A program made the position numbers and the translations under genes. DNA of 64,000 bases from Psammoneis japonica (taxonomy: Eukaryota). The DNA lies in NCBI GenBank assembly GCA_008632985.1, contig QPGO01000081.1, positions 186,001 through 250,000 of the forward strand, written 5' to 3'. Of the stretch, positions 10,225-55,483 are shown one piece after another; positions within the stretch are counted from its first letter, which is position 1, and each line of letters begins with the position of its first letter. A model generated the notes under the pieces. It did not search any database and was not told where the DNA came from. It saw nothing but the letters and a program-made list of their open reading frames with translations.

Positions 10225-13200
10225 TGTTCCTGCACAGCAAAGGCCTTTAGAAGAATCCAGTCATGACAACAAATTGTCTGGGGATGCAACCAAAATTCAC
10301 ATCTTGTGTGTCAACATTGTTCATCAGTCACACCTGCAATTGCAGATGTCAGATCAATTCTGTGCAAACAATCTTGCCTTTTTGCTCATCCACAATTGTC
10401 ATGTGATTGACGTGTGCAATGACACATGATTGTGAACATGTGTGACTCGTTCCACTTGGCAATGCATGCTGCTGCATTTGCCTTCCCATTTGCACATTGG
10501 AGTTGTTCATCAAACAGTGTAATTCAATGGACATTGACAGTGTCAGTGATGTCACCACATTTGATCTTCACTGTGCTGTTGGTGTGCACCACTGTCATTG
10601 TTCAGGATCCAGCACAGGGCTGTTCTGATTTTTTAGAGTCTTTCTCAAGCAATGTCTTTTGTGCACCTTGCAGGCCCACAGAGCATGTTGAGTGTTTTCT
10701 TGAGCATTGTTCTTTCTGTTTGCAGCACCTTGTCTTTGTTTCTAAATGAACTTCCAGCGAGCAATGTGTTGGACATTGAACATCATGTTTTGGCCTCAAA
10801 GCCAGTTGTCCTGGTGTGTGCAGCTTGCGCAGCAGCATGACATGTTGAATGTGCTGCAAAGGCCACTGCTGACAGCATTTCAGAAAATGGGTCTTCTGCA
10901 TCTAGAGGGGCATTTTGCAGGTTGAATGTGTGCAGCATGTTTCTCAGCACTTGATGCACATGCTCTGCAACAGTGCCAGCTTGTGGATTTTGTGCAGATG
11001 TGGGCTTGCATTTCACGCCACAGTCATCTTGAACTGCAGCTTTCAGTTGGTGTCTGATGAACTCATTTCCACAATGATGGGCAATGGACAATGGACAAGG
11101 ACGCCTGCTTGACCACATTCTTTCTGACAGCAACAACAGCTGTGGATTTCTTGTTTGGAATTTCCATGACTTCAAACCATTTGGTTGCTGGTTGATCATC
11201 ATCAAACATCATTTTAGGACTGGGGAGCTTTTTCTCACCCTTGCAACATGCTTTGCATGGTCCAATGAGATCCACACATGGTCTTTCCCATGGCACTGAT
11301 TCTGTGCACTTGACAGGCAAATGCCCACATTTCTTTTTTTTCTTTTTGAATTTCTGGCATGTCTCACATTTTGAAATGTGTTTTCACATGTCTTTGCACA
11401 AGGCAGACCACCGCAGGTGTTGTGAGATTGTCTCTTCTGTTTGATTTGTGCCAGGGTGCAGAAGGCATGCATGACGCCAATCCGCCACTGTCTTTTGTGA
11501 CTTCTTTGGTGCGATGATTTTTTCCTTGTGATGTGCAAGCATTTGGTCTTGCTTGCCTCCATGAAAAGTCTTTGTGCAACATGTTGCACCTGACAATTTG
11601 GAGAGAATTTCTTTGTCCAGTTTTTGTCCAGCATCAAGAACTTTGCAAGTCAATGGAAAGACAGTGTTGCAGGATTTGGGTGCAACCTTCTCAGCCAATT
11701 CTTCAGTGCTGAGGTTTTCTGTGGGTTTTGTTTGTTTTGCACCAAGTTGGCTGATTGCATCTGCAACAACATTTGCCTCACTCCCAAGACAAATCATTTC
11801 AGGGCTGCATCACTTGATTGTGAGATGCCAATGCGTGACTCTGTTCACAGCAAAATTCTCATGAGTCAGGTTTTTGTGACAGGTGAATGTTTTTGTCTGT
11901 TTGCCAAACAGTGTGTTTGGAATTCCTCAAGAGTTTCTGCAGTGGACAGCAGTTCTTTGTCCATTTTGGCACATTGCATCTGCACTCCATTCAGCTTTTG
12001 GCTGCAGAAGGCAATGGGTTGGTTGTCTTGTGACATGGCCACACCCAATTGAGAATTTCTCACATCTGCACATGTCTCAAAGGGTTTGTTGAAATTCAGG
12101 CATGACAATGATGTGTCTTTTGATGTGGCTTGCTCTGCAGTTTTGAAGGCGTTTTGTTCCATGATCATCCATTGCCACTTGAGCTCATGGTTGAGGTGAG
12201 TTTGGTTGGAGGAGCAAGTGCGTGATGTCATCAAGGCCACATGTCTTGATGGCAGTTTATCGTGCCAACAAAATGTTGCATTTTTTGCAAGTTTTGGGAG
12301 CAGCAATCAATTCAGTCCCCTCCACTTTCTTGGGAATGGGTCTGACACCTTGTCACAAAATGTGAAGTCCCAGACAGTTTGCTTTGCATTTTGTGAAAAA
12401 GGACTTTTCCGCATGGGCCCTCAAACCTGTTTGTTTGAGCTCTGCATGAATGCCATTTTGAGCTTTTGGAGGTGACCTTTGCAGCCACCTTTTGTCAGGC
12501 ATGGCATGTCATCAACATGCACCCTGACAAACACTGAGCCAGCCATGATGTTTGCTCTTGGAAAACATCTGGAGCTCCACAAATTCCCGTTGGGAGTTTG
12601 CAGTGCTCACATTTGCCCCACGGCATCACAATCACACACACAAACAATGTGTGCATGGTGTCAACTCAATGTGACAGCACCCCACATTTAAGTCAAGAGA
12701 TGTTGCACACATGAAGCCCACTTGGTGGGCTTTTGCAACACATCTTTGCCATTGGGAGGAGGATGTGAGTTGCACATTGGCCTCCGATTTGGCTCACAAA
12801 AGTCAGACAAGAACCAAACTCTGCCATTTTCTTGGTGCAAACAAAGGTTGGAGCTGCCTTTTCTGAGTGGTTTGTTTGTCTTAAAACTCCTCCTGGCTTG
12901 CGGAGTCTTTTGACTTCCTTTTGAGCAGTCATCTCCAGGACTTTTGTGGAGCAGGAAATGGTCTCACATGATGTGGGTTGCACCCAACTGCAAAATGTGA
13001 AATTGACTGGTTTTCCTTGCCACACACCTGAGGCACCATCAAAGAGGCATTTGAGTCTTTTTAGGAGGAAGCTCAGTTGCTTCTGCTCCTCTGGAGTAAG
13101 ATGTGTGGCTGCTGCAGTTGCATCATTGAGGCCAGCAGCATGACAGTTGGCATCAAGGATCCTGTTGACCCTGTCATTGAGAATTTTCATGGATCAAGAT

Positions 13201-14170
13201 TCCTCAATGTGATCAGCAATCAGCTTGAAAACCTTGGCATCAAAGAATGCATCTGCATTCTTCATTGGGGCAGTTGCATCTTTGTGTTTGATTTCCTCAC
13301 ATTGGCAAAATCAAGTGTGACTCTAAGACTGCTCATCAAGTTGCACCCCCCCCCCCCATGATCACATCATGTTGACATGAAAAAGTGGGAGTGCCGCCCA
13401 TGCATGCCATCTTCTCAATCATCTCATGTTTGTCAAATTTGGGCAACAAAAATTGCATCTTGCACTTGCTGTCAGTTGTAAAGAGCCCTCCCTTGGTTTC
13501 CCAAGTTTTGGCGGCGGACTCTTCAGTTCTCAATTTCCATGTGAATTTGTGAATTTGCACAAAATTGTGGTCAATCATGTTCCATGACCATCAAGAAGAG
13601 TGCACACAGATGCTCATTTTTCTCTTTCTCTGAGGAAGTGTTCATGTGAGCAACAACCTCTGGACCAGCATGTGAGTCACTTTGGCTTTTTTCAAGGCTT
13701 CCTGATGTCCAGCAAAGTGCAAGACTCCTTGACACGTGCCAGCCATTCTTCAGATTTGCTGCATGTCATTCTGTCAAATTGACAGTTTTCTTCACTGAGA
13801 GCATCAGAGTCAGAATTTTTGTCTTTGCACTTTTGTCATTCTCCAAGGAACTCACCTTGAGTGTTTTTGGGACTGCCTGAGTGATCATGGCATTCAACTC
13901 TTCCTTGTGAGAGGCACTTTTGTGTCTTGACACAATCATGTGCAATTGCCATTTGAACATTGCCATTTTGGGTTCTGCTCAATGTTCTCATGGCATTCCT
14001 TTGCTGGCCTTCTTTTCATGACCCAGCATTTGTCCATGTTGTGAGTGATCTTTTTGCAACAATTGCAAGACTTGTTCACCCAGTGTGGTTCCAACAAGTC
14101 ACAAACATGTTTTCATTGGCCAGAGAAGGTGGCCATGTTTCTCCCTCTTTGTCTCTCTACATTCTTTGCC
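10225..14170 (-). mobile_element. Degenerate Ty3/gypsy LTR retrotransposon (gag end-PR-RT-RH-IN), 5'-truncated
   Basis: CCHC knuckle CNCCKKITHNMDKC (~14026-14067); protease WETKGGLFTT..HDVIMG; RT entry ILDANC..LFDGASGVW; RNase H PIAFCSQKL..KELLS, ANVVADAISQL; integrase HPG, PWERPCVDLIGP, GNEF, NPQA. Possible PPT at 10477-10490 and 3' LTR at 10225-10476 (tentative). Confidence 0.9.
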
Positions 14171-14178
14171 ACTCCACT

Positions 14179-14184
14179 CACACA

Positions 14185-14215
<31 letters not shown>

Positions 14216-14217
14216 CA
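14179..14217. repeat. (CA)n microsatellite
   Basis: Interrupted CA run at the truncated end of the gypsy relic. Confidence 0.95.
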
Positions 14218-14874
14218 AAAGCTCTGTGACTCTTTTGGAGACACTCCTCTTCAACAAGTTTTGCATGTTTGTGGCTGATGTGCACCCCTCCAGTGTTTCT
14301 GCAATCACTGTGAGATTCACCAACAAGTTGCCAAGTCTCATGAGCAGAATCATCCAATCTCCCCTCTCAAGTTGAAAGCACCAGTGAATCAACTTCATCC
14401 TCAATGAAACAGGATTGCTGCTGGACCAAAAATGATGGCAACCACAAACGTTCTTTCCACAGAAGAGGGGGTCGAGTTGTTCATGCCAGTTTTGCACACA
14501 ATGAGTCATCTCCCATTCCACGTCAAACCAAGTTGTCAACCAATGACCTGCTGGATCTGCCCTTGGCCATTTCTGACCCATGTGGATGGCTGCGAGATGA
14601 GTCTCAAAACAACAGAGCTGTTTTGAATCATTTGAAACAGGAAAATGAACACACAGAAGCAAGTGCAAAGCACTTGGAGCAACTCAGGTCCAATCCACAC
14701 ACATGGAGAAATGAAGTCTTCTGTTCAAGAAACAGATTGCGCGGTGCCACAACATTGTGGGGATTGGTGCTGCTGCACAAGAACCTGTGAGGGCAAGAGT
14801 TGCACCACCTGCTGTCAGGCACCCAAAACCACAGACATGCTTGGTGAGATTGACTGGCGGGGCTGCAGCACAGA

Positions 14875-16070
14875 ATTGCACATTTTGCCAGGAGAACAAG
14901 TCTGTCTTGACTTGTGTGAGATAGATGATGGAGACAGTCCCAGAGATGGGTTGAAGACAAACCCATCCTCTGCTGTTCTTCTTGTCACATCCACTTGTTG
15001 CTTGACATCACAGTGACTCAATCCCAGCACCATGTGTGTTTCTGCACATTTTCTTGTGCTGGTGCTGCCCTTCTCAGACAGTGCTGCCAGCACCCTTGTC
15101 AGCCTTTTCAACTGCTTTTTCCATTGTTGGCACAAATTTTGTTGCAGTGTGTCAAGCAACACTTCGCAGCAGCAATTGTTTGGCGTCAAATTCTGTGAGT
15201 TTGCATGCTCACGCTTGGTCTTTTCTGGCAAATTTCTGCAAATGATGCACAGTTTTTGCATTGGATTGAGCACAAGCTCTGCACAATTCACAAATCATGA
15301 CTGACAATGACCAACTCTCTTGTCTCATCTCTGAGCTTCTCTTTTCATCCACACCTCTGCCAGCTCTCCTCAACAATGACTCTCCTTCTCTTTTCATCTC
15401 CTCAGGCCAGGTTTCACACTTCATGATGTGGCAAGCATTTTGCCTTTGTTGACACAGCCCTTTGTGCACATCTGAGATGATCCTTGCAAGTTGTTGGTGC
15501 TTCACCTGTCCAGTGTGATTTTCCGCACATTTCTCTGCTCTCAAAATCTAGCACCAAACTCTTTGTGTTTCAGAAATCTGCTGTGCTGGCAAAAACACCT
15601 GCTCAGTGCTGATGAGCTCCATTTTGGCCCATGTCTGTCAGTCCTTGACAACCCCCTTCCTCTTCCAATTGGCAATTTGCTTGAGCTTCTCACACTTCAT
15701 GTGCTGGTGAACTTGTTGCTTTTGTTGCTGCTCTCAGTGGCGACGTGAGCAAAACAAAGCTCTTCAAAAAGCCCCCCCACTCTCACATGGAAATTTCTGG
15801 CATGGACAAGGATGCTGCCTTGCCACCCAATTGTCAAATCTGTTTTTGCACTGTGCTTGCTTTGGAGTGACCATCCTTTGCTGTTTTGTTGTGCCGCCAT
15901 TTTTTTGAGTCACAAAGAGTGCAGCCAAACTCCGTTTTCATGCTGCACTCAGGGTGGCACCAATTCTGCGGCCAATCCTAGGTCACTTCTGCACAACCGG
16001 GGGTGCTGGAAGTGTGGATTGGCTGATGCCAGTCCAGCTGGCAATGGAGTAACAGCACTGGTGAAATGGA
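14875..16070 (-). repeat. Diverged direct repeat, copy 2 (partner of 8810-10060)
   Basis: See copy 1. Fragments translate similarly (VICELCRACAQ..HANSQNLTPNNCCCEVL vs VICESCRVCTK..HVNPQNLPMPKNCCCKVL). Confidence 0.8.
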
Positions 16071-16471
16071 TCTGGCAAGTGATGCGTTTGAGGGCGATGG
16101 ACAGATTTGAGGGCTGCAGGAGCGGTCGAACGATTCAAAATTTTCATTCACGCGAGGAGCAACGGAGATTGCTTTCCGACCTGCGGGATCAAAATGAAAA
16201 AGAGCCTCTCCACCATTGCCTTTATTAGACTGAGGCCGATTGTTTATTTGAATGAAATAGCATCTCAACCATCACTGACAGAAGTCGCCGCACTGAGTCA
16301 TGAAAAATGAGAGGACTAGTAGTACGGTACATCTGGAGGAAAACTATAAACTATGGTGGTCTTTCTAATTTTATATTCTGATTCTGACATACCGCGTTGC
16401 ACATTGCGTGGTAAAAAACAACAAACTGATTCTGAGCTTTCAAGTCTCATAGCATCCTCTCATGAGAAAAG

Positions 16472-21589: not shown

Positions 21590-24170
21590 AGTGCCTGGCA
21601 TGAAGACATTTACACAAATGCACTGACACTTCCACTGAAAATGGTGGTGCAGCCTCCTGCAGCCCACAAACCCAAGCCACAACTTTGGCTTGGCCACTTG
21701 TGATGCTCCACCACACCCCTTGGATTCGACTGCATGCACGACCAGCCTGCTGTGAAGTGAGAGAGAAACACCCAGCCAGAGCCCAAGAGGCAGTGGAAGC
21801 CATGCACCCAGCATAAAGCCATGTGGCTTCCAACCTTGGGTGACAGTTGTTTCCACTGATGAAACAGAAAAAGGAGCAACAGGATTGCTCAACAGAGACC
21901 AGGGCTCCATGAGAAAAGGGGGAGAAATGGGGCCACGGGACTGAAAACAACAGCACCCTCTGCTCCTTGCCTGACAGCTTGAGGACTGTTGAGTGGGTGG
22001 GTGGCAAAGAGAAAGCATGGCTTGAGGCTTGAATCCCTTGAAAGCCATGACAAGACAATGAGTTCACAGACTTTGCAGCAAATCTTCGTGAGCTTGCAAA
22101 GGCAGCACAGTTTTTGTGGCTGAGCCATTGTCAGTGCAGGAAGATCCAAAGTTGAGTGGCCACCACTTTCTGGAGCTTGAGAGAGATGAGAAAATGCCCA
22201 ATCAATGATCTGATCAAAACATTGTGCCAAGTGATGTTCCACAAAAAAATCTTGCTCTGCAGAGCACATTTGACAGTGCACCGCTTCTTGTTGCAAGAGA
22301 ACAAACAAGTGTGACTCAAAATGCCACAAATTTTGGAGAGTGTTCATCTTCAATCTGGTGAGATCCAGTTTTGAATCAGTGCCTGGTGATCCCAGAGGTG
22401 CAGACTGACTCTTTCTCTGACTTCTGGACTTTGGATTGCTTGACATTTGGAAATGATGCACTGATGCCTCCACTGAAAATGGTGGTGTTTCCTCCATTGT
22501 GCCAACAAACCCAAGTGCCATGGCTTTGGCTGTCTTTAATGTTTCACACTTCTTGGATTTGACTGTGGTGACAGCCTGTTGAACTCAGACACCCAGGGCC
22601 CAAATGGAAGCCAGATTCATGCTGCATGACTTCCAACTTTTTGGGCCACTGTTGTGTTTGCTTCCATTGATGCAATGGCAAAAAGTGCTCAACAGATCGC
22701 AGGATGAAACAAAAGGAGAAGAAAACAAAAGCTGCTGGCTGCTGCAATGCTGTTGCACATCTGTGACATCTCAACACCTCCACCTCTTTTAAAATGGGTC
22801 AAATCCACTGCTTGTGCCCCTCCAAAACAGCACAATCTTGGATGGCTCCAAAACAAACCTCTTGGGTTTGCAATGCCAGCAAAAATCTCAAAAACCTTTC
22901 ATCATTTGAGAGTGCTCTGTGAAAGAGAACCATGGCTGGAGAAGGGGTGCAAAAGAGAGAGAGAGAGAGAGAGAGAGAGCTGCTCTCATTCTTTGTTTGT
23001 CACATTTGACGGAAAATCGGCTGTGCCGATTTTGTCGTTCATTCATTCAAGAGAGTGGCCTTGAGACATCACACTTGAAGGGCCTTGAAATCACACTTCA
23101 AGGGCTTGCATTTTAGCTCAACTGCTCCATCTTTGTCTGACCAGGGGACAAACAATGTCACACCCTCTGCCACAGAGAACACTGACGGGCATCACATCCA
23201 GGTTGAAAGGAGCTGAGAGGAAGGCAAAGCAGAGCCCCCCCCCCCCCCCCACATGAGGAGGAGGCGTGTGGTCACACATGTCAAAGCCATGTCACAAAGA
23301 AAACTCAGTCAAGGCTTGTGCAGATTGTTGGCAGTGGTGGTGATGGGCTTTCTTCAATGTGTGGTGAGTGCTTCTTGTTGAGTGCTGTGTGCACTTGTTT
23401 CTCTTTGGTGGCTGCAACAGGCTCCTCACCACAATTCTGGATTTTGTGGACCAGTCTCCATTTCTTGTTCTGGTCTGCCTCACCCACACATGGGGATGCC
23501 ATCAGTCTGTGCTTTGGGGATTGCACTGGTGCTCTGTGTGTCTCCTTGCAGCTGCATCCTGCTCCATGTTTGCAAACATCATCTGTGCACAGAGGCAAAT
23601 GCACCACAAAGAAGGTCATGAAGGAATGTGCGATTCCACACATCACAGCATGAGCCCCCCCCTTCTTTTTGGAACAACTGCGCGACAATTGATCCTTGCT
23701 GTTGATGAGTTCTCTTCTTCTCACTCTTCTTCTTCTTCTTCTTCTGCCACTGGCAAATCTTCCTTTGCTCCTTGCTTCATTTCACTCTGTCATGGTTGTC
23801 CCAAAACTTTCTGGCCACAGAGAAAAGGAGACACATGTCGTCATTTGGACAGTTGCCACAAAGGATTGAATTTTCCAAGTGGCTGATGTTGTTCAAAAGT
23901 CTTTGGCAAACAAACAGAAAAGGAGGATGGCTTTACCAGACAAAACATCATTGTCATCTCTTCTTGACTCCAAAAATCAAAGTTTTGTTCTTTTGTTGTT
24001 GCCGCGCACACTTGTTCTTCTGTTCCACCAGTCCTGAGTTTCTTCTCAACCATTTCAATGAATCCAATGCAAAAGGTGTTTTCATCCATTCTGGTGACAT
24101 TGCTTGGCCGTGCCCATGGAGGAGAAGCATCATTGCGGAAGCAGTCTATGAGACATGATGCAGGAGACAG
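21590..24170. other. TpA/CpG-depleted block 2, with an internal diverged duplication (~21620-21900 vs ~22455-22750)
   Basis: Near absence of TA/CG; tccactgaaaatggtggtg..acaaacccaag occurs twice; poly-C at ~23235-23250. Confidence 0.8.
22954..22979. repeat. (AG)n microsatellite
   Basis: 13 AG units. Confidence 0.95.
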
Positions 24171-26929: not shown

Positions 26930-29530
26930 CTCGACCCTGTCATTGACAGTTTCAAAGGCAAACAAAGCTGATCTGTTGAGTACACGGACATCATCACCAT
27001 TGAAAACTGTTTTTCGTGCTTTTTTTCCAATGCCCAAGCCACGATGGTCATGACAACTTTGTCCCGCTCATTTGCCCCAATCAAGAAGGGCCAGTTGGCC
27101 CAGACATCACCTGGGATGGTCACATGCATGTGTCTCCCCAACCCCATCACATCTTAATCTGCAGCTTTGGAGAAGGCCACAAACCCTTTTTGCCATGGAC
27201 ATGGTGCCTTGGCCCAGAATTTTGATGCAGTTTGTGCCCCACCCCAGGCTGCACTCTCCATTGACAAGATTTTCACCAGCTGCAGTCTCTCTTGCTTGTT
27301 CTGCAAAAAAAAAAAAGAGACAGACTCATCTGGCCATTTTCAGAACTGCTGTAAATGGGTTTTGCAAAGCCAGCTGATTGCTGGGCTGTTGTTGAACCCA
27401 TCTTGACAAAATTGTGGTCATTCACATTGTGAATGAAGCAAAAACCTCTGCCCCTGTCCCACCATCTCTTGATGATGCTCAGTTTCAAAGAGGGGCCAAG
27501 CTAGCTCTGGTTTGCTGTGACCACTTAAAAGCTTCTAGCACGGCAAACAAGGTCAGCAGATGTGCTGCCACCGCTGAGTTGACATCCATCACACCAAATG
27601 CTGATGTCAAGTTGGCCCCTTCTCTTGCATCCTTTCACACTGCTTTGCCTGACAACACAGACTCCCACCCAGTGCACATGTGCAGCACCACTTGGAGTGC
27701 GATCGCTTCCTGGATTGGTTTCTCTGTTGTGGCACATTGATGAGTTGGCACCTTTCAGGCTGACCTCCCAGTTTTTGTTGGTTGTTGGGTTGAGTGCCAC
27801 CCATTTGGGTCATTGTCTGCAGGGCTCAATGTGTGCATGACTGTCACTCTGGCTGGTGGCCTCCCAACTTGCTCTCAATTGGGTCGTCATTCTGAGTGAC
27901 AAGTGGACGACAACCTCCCAGCCATCAATTGCTGAATTTTCTATTGAGCATGGGAGACTGACAGCTGGGAATGATTTGCTGCTTGGTTGGTGTCAGATGC
28001 CACACTTGGATGCTCTTCTTTTGTTGCTCTTTTCAACCACAAGATGATGCCTGATTTTTTTTTGTAGAGTTGAAGGAGCTTTCTTTCTCCCTCTCTCAAA
28101 TGAAAGAAGCAGCACAGCTGCTGACTCTCCATCAACTGCAATGAACAAATGACAAAGTGGCCAAGAGGTGAAGCTGCTCAATCAGGTGTTGGTCCAAGCT
28201 GTGAGAGCAACAGTGAGGCACAATGGTGCACTGGCCAAAGTCAGGAGTGAGACTTTTGTGGTGGCTTCATCAGCGGCCATCTGCTGTTGTCAATGTGGTT
28301 TGAGCTGTTGTGTTGCTGAAAAAGATCTGGGTGAGAAGGGCAGGCAAGTCAATCTGATGAGAAGAACTTGATTCAATCTGGTGCTCTCTCTTTTTCTCTC
28401 TCATTGGTCTTTCCATGAAAAAAACAAGGCAGGATGAAACAGCCAGGGGCACGTGTGATGTAAAAGAAGGTTGCCAAGGTTTTGCAAGTGGCTGCAGCAC
28501 ACAATCATTCAGCCCAGTCTGACATGTTGGCAGGCATGATTGTGGGTGTTGGCAAGATGTGTTGAGAGAGGGAGGGATGTGCCGTTGTTCCCCCACACTT
28601 TCTGAAGCTTGCTTGGTGTGGTGTGGTGTGGTGATGTTTGGGTGATGTGGTGCATCACAGAAAAGATGATGGTGAGGGTGCTTTGGTTGAGCTGTTTGGC
28701 ACAAGCAGGATTGCCAACAATGAGATCAGGTGCTTTTTGAAAATGAGCTGCAGCTTGCTGGGCTTGTGCCCTTGGCATTGTCTTTGGCAACATTTGGGTC
28801 ATCTTTGCACACTTGCATGCCTTCAATCCTGTCACCACAGGCTCTTGATTCCCCCAATTGGGGGGTTGTTGGTGGTGAGGTCACTCCACACCACATCTGG
28901 AGCTGCCATCACATTGGAGCAGAAACAATGTGGGGAAGGACCACATGTCTCATTTCAGAATGGTGCCTGCATGGCATGCATCATTGCCCAGTCATGCCAG
29001 CACCTGCCAACAGCGCACACTGTGGCACACATCAATCATGGCTGGATTCATTCAACAACTCATTTGTTGATGTTGATCATAAAATTTTGCATGACGAATT
29101 GAGACCTTGAGTTGTGCTTTTAAGATTTAAAAACAAATCAAAATGTTTTAACACACAATTTGTTTTGATTGCACTCAGACTCAGGAAAATGAAATTTGAA
29201 ATTTCTAAATTCAAAGTTTGGCTCAATCTTGAGCAAACAAGATTCCCTCTCCTCACTTTCACACTGAACAAAAAGAAAACCCATTCAGAACAGGGAGTCT
29301 GCAACTAAGAACGGGTCTCATCATGCATTCAAGAACACTGCTCTCTCAAATGTTGGTGGATCTTCCCCTTGTTGTCACCACAGGTTGGCTTCTTTCCATC
29401 ATTTCCAATGCATCAAATCTTGGCAGCAAGAAACCATCCTTTCTTCAAAACCAAAATCTCCAAGATGACTCATGTGAAGGCATGGCTGAAGATGTTGTTG
29501 AGGTTCAAACAACAGTGTGTCACACTGACA
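26930..29530 (+). repeat. Segmental duplication copy A (partner 33710-37640); forms most of depleted block 3 (~26950-30950)
   Basis: Collinear from tgacagtttcaaa (26944 / 33724) to cacactg (29521 / 37633), e.g. gagcaaacaagattccctctcctcactttc in both. Confidence 0.9.
29335..29530 (+). pseudogene. Mutated copy of the first ~65 codons of the gene at 37450
   Basis: TLLSQMLVDLPLVVTTGWLLSIISNASNLGSKKPSFLQNQNLQDDSCEGMAEDVVEVQTTVCHT aligns with MLLSRMLEALPLVVVVGWLSVVANASNPNSEKPSFLRNRNLQGDSCEGVAEDVIEIQTIIYHT; ATG changed to ACA. Confidence 0.92.
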
Positions 29531-30349
29531 AACTTGTCTTGGTGGTGTGCAATTTGAAGTCCTCCATGATTCTTGGCTTCTGCAGCAATGGCATGGTTCT
29601 CACCACCAAAACGGACAAAAAAGTGGAGTTGGTGACTCTGCCTGATGGTGCTGTCTTCAGAGAGCACATCTGCATTGAGGGCTTGACTGGAGATCCTTTT
29701 TCTTCCACACAAGTGAAAAAGCACAAAACGTGAGTTGCGGTGTTGAAACAACTCAAGCCCAGCGAGAGCAGTGTGGCCATGTGGGAAGACAAGATCATTT
29801 TTTCATCCACAGGTCCATGCTCTTGTGCAAGTCTTGTGGGTGCTCCAATGTCTTGGTTTCACACCTTGAGGCACTGTCTCTGTCCTTTTTGCCTTTGAGG
29901 TTGCAGTTGAACACATGGGCTGCCAAATGCATTCCTTCACACACAGCACAAACAAGGGACAAAAATGCATGAATCCACCACAGAAGTTTTATCAGCCAAG
30001 TGGTGAGAAGTTTGAGAAGCTGTGATGTCCACATGTGCTGGGAACCATGCTCCAACATGCAAAGAGGCTTGCCACTTGCTCGCTCGCTCACTGCCAATGC
30101 AAGCCTTCCAATGCAGCAGCCATGTCATTTTCACTTTGAAACTCACAATCACAGAAAAAGCAGCTTTTTTCTCTGCAAAACAAATCCACTTGAGACTGAC
30201 CAATCTGAACCTCAAAGGCAGACACTTTGGACAGGATGCAATGAGCGGCCTTCTTGTCTGCACAGTCTCGCAGCTCTGAGATGCAAGGGAATTCCTCCTC
30301 TTCCAGGATGCCAATGTGGGCCCAGCTGCTGCTTCAAAACTTGTCTGAT

Positions 30350-31159
30350 TCACACTCAGTCTTCACATGAGAGCCCTTTGTCTGTCCTCAGTGTTGTCCT
30401 CCTTGAGATTTCTCTTGAACCAACTGAAGAAAAAAGCACACCTCTCTCCACACACAAGTCTTTGCAACCATCAGCTTCCTGATCCATGACGATGCACACT
30501 GACTTCATGTTGTCCCACCTTAAAAGAGTTGCCCCACCAAGGCAAAGATCACTTGGGTCAGGAATCTCACCAAGCCTCAGAGTGTTTGGCAAGGCATCCC
30601 ACCAAACATTTTTTGTCATGTTCTTGATTTCCAAAGCCTCCCTGGACGTTTCATCAAATCTGTTTTTGGAGAGGCTGATGATGCACATTGATTTTCCACC
30701 ATGAGCACCACCCCAGCGTCAGGCACAAACAACAGCCCTGGTTCAAGTGAAACCCAGTCATGCACCCACTGAGCAACAATGCATTTGCGGTGCTTGTTGT
30801 TGTTGTCAGCGGTGGATTTTTTGATGCGGCAGAGAGCCCAACAACAGCAAAGATGCTGCTCTCAGCGGCAGGGCAGGGCCAAGTGGAATTCTTGGCAATT
30901 CTTTAGTGGACACTTTCATGTTGAGTGATTTTGTCAAATGATGATGAAAGTCCCAATTCGATGTTGCCGAGAGAAAGCTTTGGAGACCGCGCACTTGGAA
31001 ATGGTGTTGGCGCAGATCTGCTTCCAGAAGTCTCCTCAGTCTTGGCTGATCAGACAATGACATTTTGTTCCAGGACTTGCACACTTCGGACACAGAACCA
31101 ATGTCCCTAGCATGAAGCCAACGCATGACGAGACGCCACGTAAAGACATCCATCGTCAT
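30350..31159 (-). pseudogene. Probable F-box protein pseudogene
   Basis: MDVFTWRLVMRWLHARDIGSVSEVCKSWNKM resembles an F-box. The 5' end retains CG; the rest decays into the depleted block. 3' limit uncertain. Confidence 0.45.
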
Positions 31160-31668
31160 GTTGTTTGATCATTGATCAATCTACCGGTGCAGAGCCGACA
31201 CGACAGCGCTCGCACAGACAGACGGAAAATCTGAAAAATGGGCCGTGCGTGCTGGAGCGCTTGGGGCTGTCCCGCCACAATTTAAACGAATGAACATCCT
31301 CAGGTGCGAACATGAAGAACATTAGTGTAATTCTTTCGAGAACTTGATCCAATGCATTTTATTAATGCGGTAATTTGAAAATAAAATTTTAATTAGGGAG
31401 AAAAATTGTCCTCACGACTGAATAACTGCCATCGGCCAGAGCTGACCAAAAAGCCGTTGAAAAAATTTCGTCGCTGTCGCGCTCACAAAAATAGTAAGGC
31501 GTGGTGTTCAAGCCATTATTACAGTAACAACTAGAGGAGTGGGGTTTGGGCCCTACTGTCTCCAACAACAACAAGCGAGAGAACGACGGCATACATTAGG
31601 CACTGCTGTCAAACATAAACTGCAACAGTTTTTGCGAAAGATTTCTGTGTTGCTCGCAAAGATTCACC

Positions 31669-33709: not shown

Positions 33710-36700
33710 AAAATCGATCCATGTGACAGTTTCAAATGTAAAGACAAAGCCAATCTGTTCAGCACATGGACCTCATCATCACTGAAGACCCTTCTTTGGT
33801 TTTTTAGCTGATGCCCACACCACAATGACAAATTTGTCCTGCTCGTTTGCTCCAACCAAGAAGGGATGGTTGGCCCAGACAGCACCTGCGCTGGTCGCAT
33901 GCATTTGTCTCCCCCAACCCCCCAACACACACACACACACACCTTAACCTGCAGCTCTGGAGAAGGCTGCAAACCCTTTTTGCCATTGATGTGGTGCCTT
34001 GGCCCAGAGTTCCAATGCAGTTTGAGCCCCATCCCAGACTGCACTCTCCATTGGCAAGGTTGTCACTGGCAGAGTCTCTCTTGCTTGTTTGGCAAAAAAG
34101 AGACAGGTTGTCTGGCCATCTTTGGGACTGCTGTGAATGGGCTTGCAAAGCCAGCCAGAGCCAATCACTGGGCTGTTGTTGAGTGGGCCCAGGCCCATTG
34201 TGCAGTGTGCAAAGTGGGGATTTTCAGTGAGCAGAATGTGCGGCGCATTGCAAAGAGTGCACACTGAATGGAATGTGTGCAGTGCAGCACCAGGTTCAGG
34301 TGCAACTGTGCTTTGTTGCCAGCAACTGGCAGCAGCAACATTCATCACTTCTTGATTGCATTTTACATTGCTGCTGCATCACATTGCCAGCACATCACAT
34401 TGCTGCTGCATCACAAATCACATTGCTGCCACACTGCATTGCCACCAAATCACATCCCTTTTGCCAACAAGAAAACGACATGACAAAATTGCACCATGCA
34501 AGTGCACTTGAGCTGAGAAAGAGCTCTCTTGACTCAAGGCTTCTCTTGCAGCACTGCTGACAGTCTTGACCAACATCACATGTCTTGTGCAAATGAAAAA
34601 AAAGATGCGACACAATGGCATCATGCAATGTGTTGTGCTGAACTGTCTCAACAATGCACTTGAGATGAGGAAAAAAGTTGCTCAGCTGAAGCACTGGAAA
34701 GCCGCACAAGGGCCACCAGATGCACAGCTCCAGACATGGCTGAATGTGTCTCATGGTGAACATGCCGCCATTCCCAAACTCTCATGGTTTCCTGCCTTCT
34801 TTTTGTGCTTGCTCCTTCCCTTGGTTGATGTGCGCACATCATGGCATGCCGATTTCACCAGTTTCATCTTGTCCTGGCACTTTGCTTTAGTTTCTTCCTC
34901 ACTCTCCTGCGGTGCCTTTTCACAACTGCAACATCATGCACATCTGGATCATGATCAGAGCAAAACTCATTGATGTCTTGACCTGTCCCATTCCCCTTCC
35001 GCTCAATGCTGTGCACCAGTTCACAAGCTTTCCAAAAGATTTGAGCGGGTTTTTGAAGTGTTCACAATCCTTGTCAAAGCTCTTCATTCTTTTCAGACAT
35101 CTTGAACACAGAGGCAATCAACTTGTTGGCTGGTGGTTGCATGGCCGCACCTTTCTTTGTTGCATCTTTGGCAGCAGCTTTTTTCAGCAGCCTTCCTTGA
35201 AGTTGCCAAAGCTTTCTTTGGTTTTCTGCCTCTGATTTCTTTTTCTTCCAACTGACATGACCACTCTGCCGACTGACATGACAACTCTGCTTTGACAATG
35301 AAAAGTGTCTCTTGTGTGAACAGATGGTGTGGCGCAGAAGGAACGGCAACAGCTGCTCAGATGTCAACAGCGTTGCTTGGCTTCTTGCTTCCTCGTTCAA
35401 CTGGATGTTGCAAGTCTTGCCATCATCCATCACCAGAGACATGCAGAATTGCACATGCTGCACAAGTGCCAAAAAAGAGCACATGGGCCTGGGCCTGTTG
35501 TTGAGCCAATCTTGACAAAATTGTGATCATTTGCATTGTGAATGAGGCAAAAACCTCTGCCCTTGTCCCAGCACCTCTTCATCATGATGCTCAGCTTTAC
35601 AAGAAGAGCCAAGCCAGCTCTGGTTTGCTGTGACCAGTTGAAAGCTTTGAGCATGGGGCACAAACAAGGTCAGTGGATGCACTGCCACGGCTGAGTTGAC
35701 ATCCATCACACCAAAGGATGGCATCAAGTTGGCCCCTTCTCTGCATCCTTTCACATTCCTCAGCCTGACAATGCAGACTCCCATCCAGTGCGCACACACA
35801 CATGGCACCACTTGGAGCAGGATTGCTTCCTGAACTGGTTGCTCTGTTGTGGCACATTGATGAGTTGGCACCTTTCAGGCTGGCTGACCTCCCAGTTTTT
35901 GCTGGTTGCTGGTTGTTGGGTCAAGTGCCACCCGCTTGGGTCATTGTCTGCAGGGCTCAATGTGAGCATGACTGCCACCCTGGCTGGCCTCTCAGCTTGC
36001 TCTCAATTGGGTCATCATTCTGAGTGGCACAAGCAAACAACATCTCAACCATCAGTTGCTGAATTTTTTCTGTTGACTGTGGGAGGCAGACAGCTGAGAA
36101 TGATTTGCTGCTTGGTTGGTGTCAGATGCCATGTTTGGGTGCTCTTCTTTTGTTGCTCTTTTTGCTCTTAAGACGATGCCTCAATTTGTGGAATTGTGCA
36201 CCTTCTCTCTCTCCCTCTCTCAAACAAATGAACCAATGCAGCTGATTTTTTATCAACTGTGACAAACAAACAACAGAGTGGCCAAGGTGGAGCTGCTCAA
36301 TCAGGTGTTTGTCCAAGCTGCAAGAGCCCGCCAAAGTCAATCAGGGAGCAAGACTTTTGTGGTGCTGGCTTCATCAATGGCTGGCTGAAAATGTGGTCAA
36401 AGCTGTCGTGTCACCAAAAAATCTGGGTGAAAAGGGCAGGCAAGTGAAGCTGACAAAAAAGGCTTGATTCAATCTGGCACTCTTTCCCTTTCTCTCTCAT
36501 TGGCATCTCCATTTGCCACCCGGCAGAACAAAGCAGGGGGGGGCATTTTGGGAGCGTGAAAGATGCAATGCAAAAGGAGGTTTCCAAGGTTTTTTGTGAG
36601 TGGTTGCTGTGCACAAGCATTCAGTCCACTCTCACTTGTTGGCAGGCATGGTTGTGGGTGTTGGCAAGAGATTGAGAGTGAGAATGATGCGCCCCTGCCC

Positions 36701-37640
36701 CCTCCTGTTTTCTGAAGCTTGTTTGGCAGCAGGGCATTTGGTGGATGACATGTTGCATCACAGAGAAAGATGGGAGTGCTTTGGTTAAGTGCTCTTTGGC
36801 TCAAACAGCATTGGCAAAAATTGGGTTGGGTGCTTTTTGAAAAATCGGCTCTGCAGCTTGCTGGGCTTGCACCCTTGGGCAAGAAATGGCTGCTGGTGCC
36901 ATGGCAACTTCATCATTTTTTGTCTTTTTGGTGGTGTCATTTGGGTCTTTGCACTTTTTGCAGGACTTCAATCTTGTCACAGGCTCTTGATTCTCCCATT
37001 TGGGGGATTGTTGGTGGTGAGGTCACTCCACACCACATCTGGAGTCACCATCACGTGTTTCAGAACCTCATCTGCGTGCGTGGCATGCATCAGTCATGCC
37101 AGCACGCTGCCAAACAGCGCGCACCCACCATTTGGTCTACCGCACGGCACGCGTCAATCGTGGCTGGATTTATTCAACAATACATTTGTTGATGTTGATC
37201 ATAAGTTATTGTATGGCAAATTGAGATAGTATTATACTTCTCAGGTTTATTGAAAATGAGAATATTTTAATATAAAATTTTATTGATTGTATTCAGGCTT
37301 GAAGGAATAAAAATTGAAATTTCTAAATTTGAAATTTGGCACATCTCGAGCAAACAAGATTCCCTCTCCTCACTTTCCCCAAACAAAAGGAAAACCTGGT
37401 CAGAGTAGGGAGTCTTTAACCGGAGACGGGTCTCATCGTACAGTTAAGAATGCTGCTTTCCCGAATGCTGGAGGCTCTTCCCCTTGTTGTCGTCGTAGGT
37501 TGGCTTTCCGTCGTTGCCAATGCATCAAATCCTAACAGCGAGAAACCATCGTTTCTTCGAAACCGAAATCTCCAAGGTGACTCATGTGAAGGCGTGGCTG
37601 AAGATGTTATTGAAATTCAAACAATAATATATCACACTGG
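33710..37640 (+). repeat. Segmental duplication copy B (contains the hAT-like insertion; depleted to ~37070, unmutated after ~37200)
   Basis: Collinear with 26930-29530 apart from the 34184-35497 insertion. Confidence 0.9.
34184..35497. mobile_element. Non-autonomous hAT-like DNA transposon, ~1.3 kb
   Basis: Inverted repeat GGCCCAGGCCCAT (34186-34198) / ATGGGCCTGGGCC (35483-35495); 8-bp TSD TTGTTGAG (34176-34183, 35498-35505); empty site ctgggctgttgttgaaccc in copy A (~27381-27399). Confidence 0.8.
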
Positions 37641-39906
37641 AAACCCTTTCAATGTCACACAAAGCGAGCTGGCAGCTCTCGAATCTGCTTTTCTTTCTGT
37701 ATACAATCAGACAGCCTCGAGCTCTTGTGGTGAAAATGGGTTCCGCACTTTGGACAACGTCACAATTGTTTTAGAAATAAATCCCGGACTCACGAGAACA
37801 GACATGGCGGATTCGTTGACCAGGCAAAGTGAGCCCGTTCGATCTCAGTTTTCCTTGCTTTACCGAGTTTTCCTTCGTTGTGTCGGATGTAGAAACAACC
37901 CCCGACTCTTTCAGCCCGCGACTAGTGCTCGTCGCCAGCTCCAAAACAAGGAGCATATTTCAGAAGAAGGAAATAATTTCCCAACGCCTAAAGGCGTCAA
38001 GGGCGTAAAGCCAGAGCGATCTCTCCTTCTCACCAAAAAGACCCCCGAAGAAGACCCCAAAGCCGACATTAAAAAACTGAAACGGTTCAGTGGATCGCCC
38101 AAGTCCAAGTACAGCATTATCGATGAAATGGAGTTCCTTGTCACTGCCCGACAAGACGACGAATGCCAATGTGAAGCGCCTCTTACAGAAGATTTTATCG
38201 AACCGTTCAATTCTGTTGTCCGTGGACTCATGACGTTTGACGTGTTAATGAATGTTGATTCTGTGGATGCTGTCTTTGAACTCGATGACGTGGATTGCTC
38301 TGACACCAGCTTTTTCGAGACAGAAATTGAAGTGAAACATGTCGGCAATCCTAATGAGCTGACTTTTGGCGAACTCATTGCTCTTGAGGATAGCTTTCGT
38401 ACAACTTACAACAACCAGAATGCTTTAAACGGCGACACCTGCGACCCCCTGTTTCGCGTGCTTGACACGGTCACCATTCTTCCGCTTGATAGTCCAGCTG
38501 TTAACGGTACACGCATGTTTACGTCAATATACCTCGCTTCTGGACGATGCAGAGGTTGTGCTTCTAGCTCTAACGTGTTCAGTCTTGAATCTCGGCGGTC
38601 GCTTCAGCGGTCTAACCCTGAGCCAAGGTTCCTTCAGCAGATAGTCCAAAACAACACGTGCTTTTGCCCGATGGATTTTGATCAGAGACCGCCGACTAGC
38701 AGTGAGTTCTTAGATGCCTTTGAGAAGAATAATGATGTTCTACGGGATGCGGGCGTGTTGGTCAACATCAACTCCACTGAGTCTGTGACCGATCTGATAA
38801 CTCCTGGTCTGTCGCCTTCTCCAACGGAGGTTCCGAACCTTCAGCCAACACTTTCACCAAGTTTGGTTGGAACGCCATCTCCAACACGTCAAGACATGTT
38901 CCCGAGTCAACGACCAACTACACCAGCGCCAACTCCAAGAAGCACTCCGAACCCTACTCGACGAGTTACTCCCAATCCAACTCGTCGAACGACGTCCGCA
39001 CCAACTCCCAGAATCACTCCGAATCCTACTCGTCGCACTACACCAGCACCATCTCCTCGCACAACCCCCAATCCTACCCGTCGAAGGACGTCAGCGCCAA
39101 CTCCCAGACTCACTCCGAATCCTACTCCTCGCGCTACACCAGCGCCATCTCCTCGAGTGACCCCCAATCCCACACCTCGCGCTACACCAGCGCCATCTCC
39201 TCGAGTGACCCCCAATCCAACTCCTCGCGCTACACCAGCGCCATCCCCTCGGGTGACCCCCAATCCCACTCCTCGCGCTACACCAGCGCCATCTCCTCGG
39301 GTGACCCCCAATCCCACTCCTCGCGCTACACCAGCACCATCTCCCCGCGTCAGTCCAAATCCGACGCCTCGAGCTACAACAGCCCCGACTCCTCGCCAGC
39401 CGACACCGAGTCCAACGCCAAGAGTCACTCCGGGTCCGACGCCTCGACCTACTCAACCTACACCGGTCACGACACCTGAAACACAGAGACCAACATTCAA
39501 TCCGACGCCAGGAGGCTCTCCAGCCTCGACTCCGGGTCCAACGCCCCAAGCATCACCTGGTTCAACACCTCGACCTACACCGGCCACGACACCTGAAACA
39601 CCGAGACCAACACTTAATCCAACACCAGGAGGCTCTCCAGCCTCCACTCCGGGTCCAACGCCTCAAGTACCAACTGGTCCAACACCTCAACCTACACCGG
39701 TCACGACACCTGAAACACCGAGACCAACACCACAAGGAACTCCAGCCTCGACACCGAATCCGACACCCGGTCCTGATGGACCTACGTTGCAGCCAACGCT
39801 GAGTGTGCCAAGCACTCCTACTCCATCTCTCGATCCTGCATCCCTTAGTCTCGTCCCCTCCTTTCAAGGAACTCTAAGCAATGTACCAACAATCATCGCT
39901 CCGTGA
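37450..39906 (+). CDS. Secreted mucin-like protein: repeated Cys-containing modules plus Pro/Thr/Arg-rich tail, 818 aa
   Basis: Signal peptide; repeated EL.ALE..F...YN....C....R.LD.VTI..RC.GC module; RNLQ/RQLQ/RSLQ/RFLQ motifs; long P/T repeats. Confidence 0.88.
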   Translation: MLLSRMLEALPLVVVVGWLSVVANASNPNSEKPSFLRNRNLQGDSCEGVAEDVIEIQTIIYHTGNPFNVTQSELAALESAFLSVYNQTASSSCGENGFRTLDNVTIVLEINPGLTRTDMADSLTRQSEPVRSQFSLLYRVFLRCVGCRNNPRLFQPATSARRQLQNKEHISEEGNNFPTPKGVKGVKPERSLLLTKKTPEEDPKADIKKLKRFSGSPKSKYSIIDEMEFLVTARQDDECQCEAPLTEDFIEPFNSVVRGLMTFDVLMNVDSVDAVFELDDVDCSDTSFFETEIEVKHVGNPNELTFGELIALEDSFRTTYNNQNALNGDTCDPLFRVLDTVTILPLDSPAVNGTRMFTSIYLASGRCRGCASSSNVFSLESRRSLQRSNPEPRFLQQIVQNNTCFCPMDFDQRPPTSSEFLDAFEKNNDVLRDAGVLVNINSTESVTDLITPGLSPSPTEVPNLQPTLSPSLVGTPSPTRQDMFPSQRPTTPAPTPRSTPNPTRRVTPNPTRRTTSAPTPRITPNPTRRTTPAPSPRTTPNPTRRRTSAPTPRLTPNPTPRATPAPSPRVTPNPTPRATPAPSPRVTPNPTPRATPAPSPRVTPNPTPRATPAPSPRVTPNPTPRATPAPSPRVSPNPTPRATTAPTPRQPTPSPTPRVTPGPTPRPTQPTPVTTPETQRPTFNPTPGGSPASTPGPTPQASPGSTPRPTPATTPETPRPTLNPTPGGSPASTPGPTPQVPTGPTPQPTPVTTPETPRPTPQGTPASTPNPTPGPDGPTLQPTLSVPSTPTPSLDPASLSLVPSFQGTLSNVPTIIAP
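38911..39420 (+). repeat. Coding tandem repeat, 48-bp unit (PRATPAPSPRVTPNPT)
   Basis: About five near-identical units at 39127-39370 flanked by diverged units. Confidence 0.92.
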
Positions 39907-43737: not shown

Positions 43738-45739
43738 CCTTCTTGGTGGGCCCACCAAGGACGCGCAATGTCCCCTGGACGTAGATGTCGGAATGTTCCA
43801 TTGGCATGAACCAACAGGAATTTGCAACCGCTGTGAAGATTTACATGATCAAAACCAACATTAGATAAAGGGTCCATACATTTTAGAAGATTGACAGTGC
43901 ACATCTCCATTTTAGAAGATTGATGATGTATAAATCCGTTTAGAACATTAGCAATGCACAGATCTACTTTTCATTTTGAGTTTTTACAGAGCGTTGCAGT
44001 GTTGATAAAACTTGAACCAGGGTCGGCGAAACGAAGTTGGTTCTATTGTACGGTACCCTGCTCTAACAGGTGGAAGAGACTGGGGCGGGCGCGTGAACTT
44101 TGGGGGACGTCTCATCCAGCCAGCTGCTGGCAGAAGAAAGTCTGCTCGTCAGTGCATCTATAGAGAGTCTGTCCAGCGTTCACCGAAACTGGCAAAACCC
44201 CCAAAACGCATTGATTGTCAGACTGTTTCAGTGCAAATTCTACGCAAGATTCTTTGGCCAGCAGCTGGCTGGAGATGCAGTGGTGCAACAACGTGGGCCA
44301 GAACAGAAGATATTCCTTCGCGAGGTCGTCAGAGTGCACCTTTTTTCACAACAAGAGTCCACCACATCCACATTGGTGGAGATGGCTCTGTGGAAAATCG
44401 CTGGTTTCACCAATTTGCCATGTGAGTCAAGCGCCAGATTGAGAGTCACGCTGCTCCTGGAGGCCAGCCAGCACAGCCACAAACTTCCGTGCACCAGCCA
44501 CCAGTGCTTTGGCTCTGAGTGCCCTTCCTTCCCACCCACAGAACATGTGCACGAAAGTCTGAAAACTGTGTTCATTTAAATCCTCTAAAAAAATGCATGA
44601 TCTCTTCTTTGTGGGTGGTTGTGTGTGTCATCTGCTGCACATTGCACACATCTCAGCACTGCACATGATGTCGAATGATGGTTGCTGGCTGCACATTTTC
44701 AGTGCTTGGCTCCAGATCTGAGAGGCCAAAATGTCATCAGGCTGTGGAGCAAGCTTGGCTGTCAATGTGATGCAGTGATCATGCGCAGCAAAATTGGCGC
44801 CAATTTCAACCTTGTCAAAGATTCTGGCACTGTCCACTTTTGCCGCAACTGCATCCAGGGAGGCACAATGGGCGCTGCTGGTGGAAGAGAAGCTGCTGGG
44901 GGAAGACCTGATGGAGGGCACCCACGGATGAAACTCAACAATTTCTTCAGCAAAGACAAGCCAAAAGGGGACAGCAGAGTTCTTTGTGAAGAAAAAGGTC
45001 CATGCACTTCATCTGCTTTGCACACCCTTGATTTCATTTTTTGGAACAAACCATTTCTCAAACAGCTGCAAACCCATCTGCATGATTCCAGGAATCTTGG
45101 AAATTTTCAATTTTTAAAAATCCACGTGACTCGCGCTCGTGGATTTTTAGAAATGCAGATTCTTAAAAATTCCCAATGCATGTTTTCAAAAACAGATGCT
45201 CCTTGTTTTAGAAAATGACGCAATTTCGTAAATCTCCCCTTTTCATTGTCAAAAATGTGTGAGTGCCTTTTTCTCATGCACGCTGATTTGAATTGCGGCA
45301 CCTCATCAAAGGCGGACTGCCAGAATCACCTCTTCCAAGATGTGCCAGCATGGGGCAGAGCAGGCGGGAGAGAAAACAGCATTGTCAACAGAGAGACAAC
45401 AACAAAAAAACAAAGGCTCGCAACACAGTGAAGCAACACTCTTGTTTGCATTTGGTGTTTGTGAGTTGTTGGATCTCAAATTGTGCAAATGACATGATCG
45501 TTGAGAAAGTCAAAATGACCGTTGACAAATTGGCGTGACTTTCCACTCTTAAGAATCAACTGTGGTGTGTTTAAAAATCAACGTTCTGGGGAATGCAGAT
45601 TTTTAAAAATGGAGATTTCTGAAATTCCGCGCAACAGATCCATCTCTTGCATTGTCTCTTCATGACTCTTTGTCATCTTCTCATTGCTTTCATGCAAATC
45701 CTCATTGTGTTGTCCAAAACCTCCAACATCAACCTCAAC

Positions 45740-55400: not shown

Positions 55401-55483
55401 AGAATCGGGCTGTCAAAACATCGACATCATCTCTTGAAGAGTGTTGTGCCAGAGCTCCAGTGCAACTGCTTCGTTGTTCTCAT

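Follow-up and report, generated by a model that had tools for sequence, protein, structure and literature searches.

Within the 64,000-nucleotide stretch of Psammoneis japonica DNA analysed here (contig QPGO01000081.1, positions 186,001 to 250,000, hereafter the window), which is nuclear DNA of a pennate diatom, the dinucleotides CpG and TpA have been largely removed by transitions of the DNA itself that took place in situ, affected both strands and were restricted to inserted or repeat units. The loss can be read from a live gene and a dead copy of its 5' end, a pair that is a direct source of both the polarity of the change and its rates per context. All coordinates below are those of the window.

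A live gene and its dead copy

The pair is made up of the following features.

37450..39906, plus strand: live gene with an intact 818-codon open reading frame (ORF), its N-terminus resembling a signal peptide and its tail made of Pro/Thr-rich tandem repeats
37055..37449, plus strand: upstream region of the live gene, dense in CpG and TpA (the 'before' state), from composition and alignment
29338..29527, plus strand: dead counterpart of live-gene codons 2-63, with CpG 10/10 and TpA 6/6 converted, from alignment
28935..29337, plus strand: dead counterpart of the upstream region (homologous to 37060-37449), depleted, from alignment

The core alignment of 37453-37639 (live) with 29338-29527 (dead) comprised 190 columns with one 3-nt insertion. 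As the original prediction had stated, none of the 10 CpG steps was kept in the dead copy (9 became CA and 1 became CC) and none of the 6 TpA steps (4 became TG and 2 became CA), whereas CA was kept at 11 of 11 sites and TG at 15 of 16. The examples quoted for this pattern, ACAATAATATATCAC -> ACAACAGTGTGTCAC, aatattttaatata -> aatgttttaacaca and tcgtac -> tcatgc, are present in the sequence. Other differences were said to be few, at about 16; they are indeed few, but their count is 13 outside CpG and TpA (29 substitutions in total), and the homology ends at 29527/37639 instead of the claimed 29530/37644. The proposed Fisher exact test per dinucleotide was applied to the core alignment, with CpG and TpA destroyed at 16/16 sites as against 1/27 for CA and TG (p=6e-11) and 38/169 for the other 14 dinucleotide types (p=5e-10). 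The live ATG at 37450 corresponds to ACA at 29335-29337 in the dead copy.

Similar behaviour had been predicted for the upstream region and was found when the alignment was extended to 37060-37639 against 28935-29527, in which 20 of the 22 aligned CpG were destroyed and 2 kept (products 15 CA, 2 TG, 2 CC and 1 TA), 24 of 28 TpA were destroyed and 4 kept (products 10 CA, 9 TG, 3 TT, 1 CT and 1 AG), and CA and TG were kept at 34/39 and 35/42 sites, respectively. The extended comparison, with CpG and TpA destroyed at 44/50 sites and CA and TG at 12/81, gave p=3e-17 in the Fisher test. The live copy of the duplicated 585 bp (37055-37639) still has 24 CpG and 29 TpA, and its AT-rich stretch at 37171-37300 holds 17 TpA in 130 bp. 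The depletion of dead gene fragments bears out the claim that host-gene sequence, beyond sequence of transposable elements (TEs), is a substrate, with the qualification that the gene fragment became one through travelling within a repeat unit. The live gene's homologous 585 bp show no such change, and what is targeted is therefore the inserted unit or the chromatin domain rather than the sequence per se.

The protein encoded by the live gene had no match in Pfam, and the searched data held only 2 distant homologues (24-30% identity), which are unusable as an orthologue outgroup for the N-terminal 63 codons. The tail of the gene at 38962-39730 is composed of CpG-rich tandem repeats with 48-, 117- and 144-bp units (80-90% matches) and is not depleted.

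Depleted blocks and the units within them

Along the window, genes of ordinary composition are interspersed with blocks of extreme composition. The observed/expected ratio (o/e) in ordinary parts is ~1.0 for CpG, ~0.5 for TpA and ~1.2 for CpA/TpG, whereas in the co-depleted blocks at ~8.6-16.1, 21.8-24.0, 27.0-31.1, 34.0-37.05 and 55-62.3 kb these ratios are 0.04-0.2, 0.01-0.09 and 1.6-2.3, respectively, or ~0.1, ~0.03 and ~1.9 across the blocks, at a GC content of 0.44-0.49 that shows no change relative to ordinary parts. All six depleted blocks sum to ~54% of the window and contain a gypsy and a long interspersed nuclear element (LINE)-like element, together with dead gene fragments and an unclassified repeat. 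Their edges are sharp, with CG or TA every 10-20 bp giving way within <~50 bp to gaps of 100-200 bp. As a control for chance, 80 algal SelO loci from metagenomes (702 kb) were scanned for 600-bp windows with CG+TA <= 8 and none was found; this gene-rich set, in which many loci are non-diatom, serves as a chance control and is too TE-poor to show absence elsewhere. The depleted blocks contain the features listed here.

8600..16100, minus strand: Ty3/gypsy retrotransposon with long terminal repeats (LTRs), depleted, from domain search and LTR alignment
21800..24000, no strand assigned: co-depleted block, partly multi-copy, from composition
26944..28934, plus strand: unclassified repeat, copy A (homologue of 33724-37054), depleted, from blastn and composition
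29527..29863, plus strand: second dead gene fragment, tRNA-binding domain (tRNA_bind, E=7e-6), joined straight to the first fragment
30809..31168, minus strand: F-box-like dead fragment (E=1e-4, which falls short of the Pfam cut-off), bordering the 27.0-31.1 kb block on its right side from within
33724..37054, plus strand: unclassified repeat, copy B, depleted, with an extra 1.3 kb at 34182-35489, from blastn and composition
44600..54900, minus strand: LINE-like element, TpA o/e 0.02-0.18 and CpG o/e 0.5-0.87, Exo_endo_phos E=0.002
55000..62300, no strand assigned: co-depleted block without recognisable domains, from composition and domain search

The region 26944-29527 matched 33724-37639 at 74-76% in blastn; this duplication is diverged, and the dead copy makes up its right end. 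The unclassified repeat within it, ~3 kb long, is multi-copy by summed contig depth, is depleted in both window copies and gave no Pfam match. Depletion starts within <=~20 bp of the left edge of the repeat, at 26932 vs 26944 in copy A and at 33715 vs 33724 in copy B. On the other side, the depletion of copy B ends at 37054, ~400 bp ahead of the live ATG, and the next 585 bp are normal, while the homologous ~590 bp of gene flank in copy A are depleted. The 1.3 kb present in copy B only (34182-35489) has a summed read depth of 245-300 vs ~60 and probably represents a different repeat family nested within this copy.

For the second dead fragment (29527-29863) a parent elsewhere was identified in a 2545-nt contig of a second read set (run X2) and, with the same letters, in contigs of the first (run X1). 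The parent contigs diverge from the window at both ends of the fragment and differ from it at 54 positions. Among the 30 of these 54 differences that were listed, 12 lie on CpG or TpA of the parent (CG>TG 5, CG>CA 4, CG>CT 1 and TA>CA 2) and 18 elsewhere; this pair is older and noisier than the first and shows the same direction of change. More fragments follow 29863, and the repeat is thus joined to a patchwork of captured gene pieces that includes the dead copy. A 166-codon frame at 29233-29730 on the plus strand runs open and in phase over the 29527 junction, fusing the dead fragment of the signal-peptide exon to the dead tRNA-binding-domain fragment, and is probably open only through the erasure of TAA and TAG stops.

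Loss of TpA has marked consequences for coding potential. Among the 1133 residues of the gypsy ORFs there are 0 Tyr, while His and Cys are enriched, and Tyr makes up 0.4% of the 2616 residues of the LINE-like ORFs vs 2.8% in seven normal genes. Ty3/gypsy elements normally carry a Y-x-D-D motif in reverse transcriptase; the window copy reads VHVDD at 12508-12522, with His encoded by CAT (YVDD -> HVDD). Homologues of the gypsy RNase H ORF were collected from a library of 1.84 billion proteins, and in 168 matched stretches of 150 homologues all three Tyr-dominant columns (Tyr 64%, 50% and 79%) are Cys in the window copy. Of the best 150 homologues, 18 are Tyr-less (Tyr <=0.8%; medians of 5.05% for His and 3.8% for Cys), the medians of the other 132 being Tyr 3.8%, His 3.0% and Cys 1.4%, and these 18 point to the same decay in other diverged copies or organisms. 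The Tyr-less proteins include P0124, P0131, P0164, P0168, P0170, P0174, P0186, P0231, P0248 and P0255, and proteins of 699 and 606 residues with 0 Tyr are found among them. A word-index search among longer proteins found no homologue of the gypsy ORF, and a search of the PDB returned only a chance match (E=0.65).

Stop codons are affected likewise, the ratio TGA:TAA:TAG being 1304:100:44 in depleted blocks vs 1052:479:459 in normal DNA. Because TpA loss makes no stops (TAA -> TGA is still a stop) and removes TAA and TAG, depleted DNA is rich in long meaningless ORFs, and 137 of the 189 stop-to-stop frames of >=100 residues overlap depleted blocks. Two ORFs within a range of 219-248 codons cross the edges of the 21.8-24.0 kb block (21320-22584 and 23844-24500, both on the minus strand) and may be gene ends overrun by decay or spurious frames.

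In the LINE-like block the two losses are uncoupled, TpA being nearly gone and CpG largely kept, with ACG as the most depleted CpG context. RNase H-like and zinc-knuckle-like motifs were seen by eye in this element, together with near-contiguous ORFs of 160-558 residues. Outside the blocks, the SelO protein at 6056-8167 on the minus strand is 55-59% identical to those of its best named relatives, Cylindrotheca, Nitzschia, Seminavis, Epithemia and Pseudo-nitzschia, and 65% identical to its top unnamed match; on these relatives the window was assigned to a raphid pennate diatom.

Direction and specificity of the decay

That the change runs from CG/TA to CA/TG, as originally proposed, is agreed upon by five lines of evidence, namely the intact ORF, double transitions between LTRs, the loss of Tyr, normal TpA elsewhere and the second dead fragment. 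Whereas the 818-codon ORF of the live copy is intact, its dead counterpart lacks the ATG. The two gypsy LTRs (8853-9763 and 14911-15778) are 81% identical over aligned sites and differ by adjacent double transitions of the class CA<>TG 17 times, with each of six other classes occurring at most once. The same doubles number 30 between copies A and B of the unclassified repeat (others <=3), and 11 in its first part (others <=1). Because a CA<>TG pair can result from a single step in each copy only where the starting state was CG or TA, the ancestor had one of these at the sites concerned, and since LTRs are identical at insertion, the 17 doubles reflect decay in place after insertion. TpA o/e is 0.39-0.97 in normal window parts and in the 80 algal metagenome contigs, and the depleted state is therefore derived.

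Specificity was assessed from strand-symmetrised rates in the polarised pair. A>G changes affected 21/56 sites at TpA vs 7/118 at ApA, 5/83 at CpA and 3/75 at GpA, and C>T changes affected 19/45 sites at CpG vs 5/83 at CpA, 6/45 at CpC and 8/56 at CpT. Per-base rates therefore peak at CpG and TpA, so that specificity lies at the level of the dinucleotide and not in a general excess of transitions; as a rough estimate from this one 580-bp pair, the transition rate at CpG and TpA within islands is 20-40x that of other sites. A model based on the WA preference of polymerase eta was tried and rejected, as ApA is not raised (A>G at 6% of ApA vs 38% of TpA).

Both strands are affected, the products of TA in the dead copy being 10 CA and 9 TG. 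Counts of CA vs TG per 400 bp in depleted blocks behave approximately as a fair coin (variance of z 1.1, with |z|>2 in 3 of 58 windows), and no long-range strand patches of the kind left by single events of repeat-induced point mutation (RIP) were seen in these counts. In the repeat pairs, 23 CpG and 13 TpA have decayed in one copy only, which argues for gradual rather than all-or-none decay.

Flank rules were examined using 71 polarised sites together with a comparison of blocks and genes whose original composition possibly differed. The mutated C of CpG is preceded by A/C/G/T in 17/1/11/10 cases vs 7/8/11/13 for the unmutated partner C, so a 5' A is preferred and a 5' C avoided, and CCGC is the best-surviving CpG context in depleted blocks, consistent with this rule. 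TpA survival relative to normal density is 0.54 for TTAA, 0.35 for CTAA, 0.24 for CTAG and 0.15 for GTAA, whereas ATAT and GTAC have gone from the depleted blocks (0) and ATAC is at 0.01. A trinucleotide rule suggested by these survivor densities (TAY susceptible, TAA resistant) was tried against the polarised outcomes and rejected, with 6 vs 2 in the pair and 9 vs 7 when pooled (p=0.40).

Run X1 contigs differ from the window at full depth 6 times within 23667-28401, always with T or A in the window and C or G in the reads, and 4 of the 6 differences lie in CG- or TA-related contexts (TA/CA at 23934, TG/CG at 24117 and 25949, and TA/TG at 27943). These may be allelic traces of CpG and TpA decay.

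Explanations and known systems

The explanation that we favour, and hold to be somewhat probable, is a two-arm decay of silent repeat islands, in place, on both strands and restricted to domains, in which the CpG arm acts through methyl-cytosine and the TpA arm through an activity as yet undescribed. The ~3-kb repeat (copy B) just upstream of the live gene would have been copied, taking with it ~590 bp of gene flank, and copy A with this flank (26944-29527) would have landed beside other captured gene fragments in the silent repeat island at 27.0-31.1 kb. Within such islands only, CpG changes to TpG/CpA and TpA to CpA/TpG until both steps are nearly gone; the two arms would be aimed at one chromatin domain set in cis by the inserted unit. 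The CpG arm would be the deamination of methylated cytosine, and the TpA arm a second activity converting T:A -> C:G, driven by an enzyme or a modification and tied to the same chromatin, for which enzymatic adenine deamination to inosine and thymine methyl oxidation to a G-pairing base are candidates. The sparing of both the duplicated 585 bp of the live gene and its CpG-rich tandem array argues for cis targeting by domain rather than for the sensing of homology. Transversions between the repeat copies number 29/568, and the extent of the CpG arm would fit ordinary methyl-CpG decay, with 3-16% of CpG expected to be left under mammalian rate ratios and 9% observed. For the TpA arm, T:A>C:G changes would have to occur at a rate of similar order, for which there is no known spontaneous chemistry, and a step involving an enzyme or a modification is therefore favoured. 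In another pennate diatom, TEs are CpG-methylated through DNMT5a (PMC9998398).

Several points weigh against this explanation. The silent chromatin and the methylation of the islands are presumed from sequence. A single machine could likewise account for the fact that, in four blocks, both losses are of equal extent and share their sharp edges. The strong bias that the dead copy shows towards CG>CA (15 vs 2, p=0.002) is unexpected under simple symmetric decay and is only partly explained by the 5'-A rule, which is followed at 10/11 informative sites. For the presumed transduction of the gene flank, neither element termini nor target-site duplications were identified.

A homology-triggered defence resembling RIP, in which an enzyme of the RID/DNMT4 type would sense duplicated DNA, possibly before meiosis, and mutate it in bursts, is considered unlikely. 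The dead copy would then have been attacked as a duplicate of the live gene, and this would suit the observations that all depleted segments whose content could be identified are repeats or duplicates and that depletion begins at the repeat edge in both copies; diatoms have DNMT4 enzymes of unknown function that group with fungal RID (PMC9998398). However, the 24 CpG and 29 TpA retained in the duplicated part of the live gene and the untouched 770-bp CpG-rich tandem array are difficult to reconcile with homology sensing, RID-type chemistry would give C>T only and approximately half of the changes are T>C/A>G at TpA, RIP generates the TpA that is removed here, CpG and TpA do not decay in step in the LINE-like block, and the many sites decayed in one copy only are a better fit for gradual decay than for bursts. 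The shared edges of the two losses in four blocks, and the fact that both are pyrimidine transitions at palindromic YpR steps with the same end product, would suit a single enzyme system acting on 5-methylcytosine and thymine at self-complementary YpR, for example by oxidation of the TET/JBP type, with only the CpG arm dependent on methylation. Such oxidation would act through the mutagenicity of oxidised thymine; the uncoupling in the LINE-like block is predicted by this system if the CpGs there are unmethylated, and an R-Y-R rule is loosely suggested by the retention of YTAR at 0.24-0.54 and of RTAY at 0-0.01 of normal and by the preference of CpG decay for a 5' A. The direction test of the TpA flank rule was, however, not significant (9 predicted vs 7 opposite), and no such diatom enzyme or modified base was found in the searched literature, where only dinoflagellate papers surfaced; we regard this system as quite improbable.

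Were CpG and TpA hypermutable throughout the genome, the blocks would represent neutral equilibrium and selection would preserve CG and TA in genes and regulatory DNA. The depleted blocks are indeed the parts without intact genes, but CpG o/e is ~1.0 over whole kilobases of normal DNA, upstream and intergenic DNA included, the composition switches in <50 bp, and site-by-site selection is an unlikely guardian of the 17 TpA at 37171-37300, all of which makes this account very unlikely. Editing of retroelement or retrocopy RNA or cDNA before integration (ADAR-like A>I, APOBEC-like C>U), or selection against CpG and UpA in TE transcripts, would accord with the largest blocks being retroelements, with the 15 vs 2 excess of CG>CA in the dead copy and with a precedent in the joint CpG/UpA suppression of RNA viruses and cytoplasmic RNA (PMC3829696). 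It is close to refuted and highly improbable: the 17 CA<>TG doubles place the decay of the LTRs after integration, the dead copies contain upstream DNA, homology to the transcript-like parent contig ends at 29863 as at an exon edge, and the strands are affected equally, while the loss of catalytic Tyr residues rules out functional selection.

Heavily modified DNA can give systematic miscalls on some long-read platforms, and miscalling at modified bases was considered together with other sequencing or assembly artefacts, the least credible of the explanations weighed. From run X1, one k-mer contig of 2267 nt at a depth of ~65 covers 28873-31139 with 0 differences, and further ~60x contigs of this run bridge block edges at 26.9 kb (24539-27751; 1 difference, 1 gap) and 37.05 kb (37015-39153; 0 differences). 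The copies moreover differ stably from one another, and the Tyr -> His/Cys consequences are also seen in 18/150 public homologues. Run X1 rules out an artefact of assembly or consensus; it may be the assembly's own sample, so a peculiarity of the strain is possible. A contig of run X2 (recorded as 'DNA?') omits the 101 nt at 24447-24547 in the manner of a spliced intron, and run X2 may be transcript data of the same sample.

To our knowledge, there is no established chemical or enzymatic cause for localised T:A>C:G loss of TpA, and no description of joint CpG and TpA decay was found in the full-text literature for diatoms or for transposons generally, a search whose coverage excludes subscription journals and supplements; the one match that joined diatoms to hypermutation dealt with immunoglobulins. 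It is conceivable, if doubtful, that a diatom DNA editor of novel chemistry, linked to genome defence or heterochromatin, is at work, with targeted T:A -> C:G change at TpA by duplex adenine deamination or thymine methyl oxidation, perhaps in the same machine that removes methylated CpG, so that every self-complementary YpR step of an inserted element would be rewritten to CA/TG and its Tyr codons, TAA and TAG erased. Should an enzyme be the cause, genome defence would gain a new arm in the form of a natural A:T-to-G:C DNA editor; such an enzyme would account for unrecognisable diatom TE islands (without Pfam matches, without Tyr and with spuriously long ORFs), and it would be relevant to TE annotation, gene prediction and the dating of insertions in diatom genomes.

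Several known systems share parts of the pattern. Polymerase eta acting with activation-induced deaminase (AID) in somatic hypermutation, as well as APOBEC/ADAR editing of retroelements, produces C>T plus A>G in a targeted region; the polymerase, however, has a WA hot spot, whereas ApA was hit here at 7/118 and TpA at 21/56 sites, and APOBEC/ADAR editing is strand-asymmetric and precedes integration, which the LTR comparison contradicts. A dual A-to-I and C-to-U deaminase, the trypanosome ADAT2/3, was reportedly described by Rubio et al. in 2007, and resembles the proposed activity in that a single deaminase fold serves both for adenine, within a U-A context, and for cytosine in DNA; its substrates are tRNA and, in vitro, single-stranded DNA, and it has no known genomic signature. 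In the very-short-patch (VSP) repair of E. coli, Bhagwat and McClelland are said to have traced the depletion of CTAG to the removal of TpA by T>C, a by-product of guarding methyl-cytosine sites. This is the only textbook case of TpA removal by T>C known to us, but it is bacterial, genome-wide and confined to CTAGG/CCWGG, whereas here all TpA contexts are affected (RTAY most, YTAR least) and in blocks only.

The decay of methylated CpG in silenced TEs of vertebrates and plants is alike in converting CpG to TpG/CpA, on both strands and in place, in its preference for a 5' A and in an extent of CpG loss that agrees with the transversion clock. It leaves TpA unaffected, and so explains half of the signature and not the LINE-like block, in which TpA alone is lost. 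Basidiomycete TEs show hypermutation at TCG. RIP in ascomycetes, which depends on RID/DIM-2, is alike in its near-saturating context-specific transitions, its confinement to repeats and TEs, its sharp edges and the inactivated elements that it leaves. The outcome here is RIP-like, yet three defining features of RIP that were tested failed: RIP makes C>T changes only, mostly at CpA, as against 21 A>G/T>C changes at TpA and 19 C>T changes at CpG; RIP yields TpA and AT-rich DNA, as against a TpA o/e of 0.01-0.09 at a GC content of 0.44-0.49; and RIP mutates both duplicates, as against a live copy that was spared. Fungal RIP and the CpG decay of methylated genomes both involve cytosine only, whereas in this photosynthetic stramenopile the loss of TpA by T:A>C:G is as strong and as localised as the loss of CpG.

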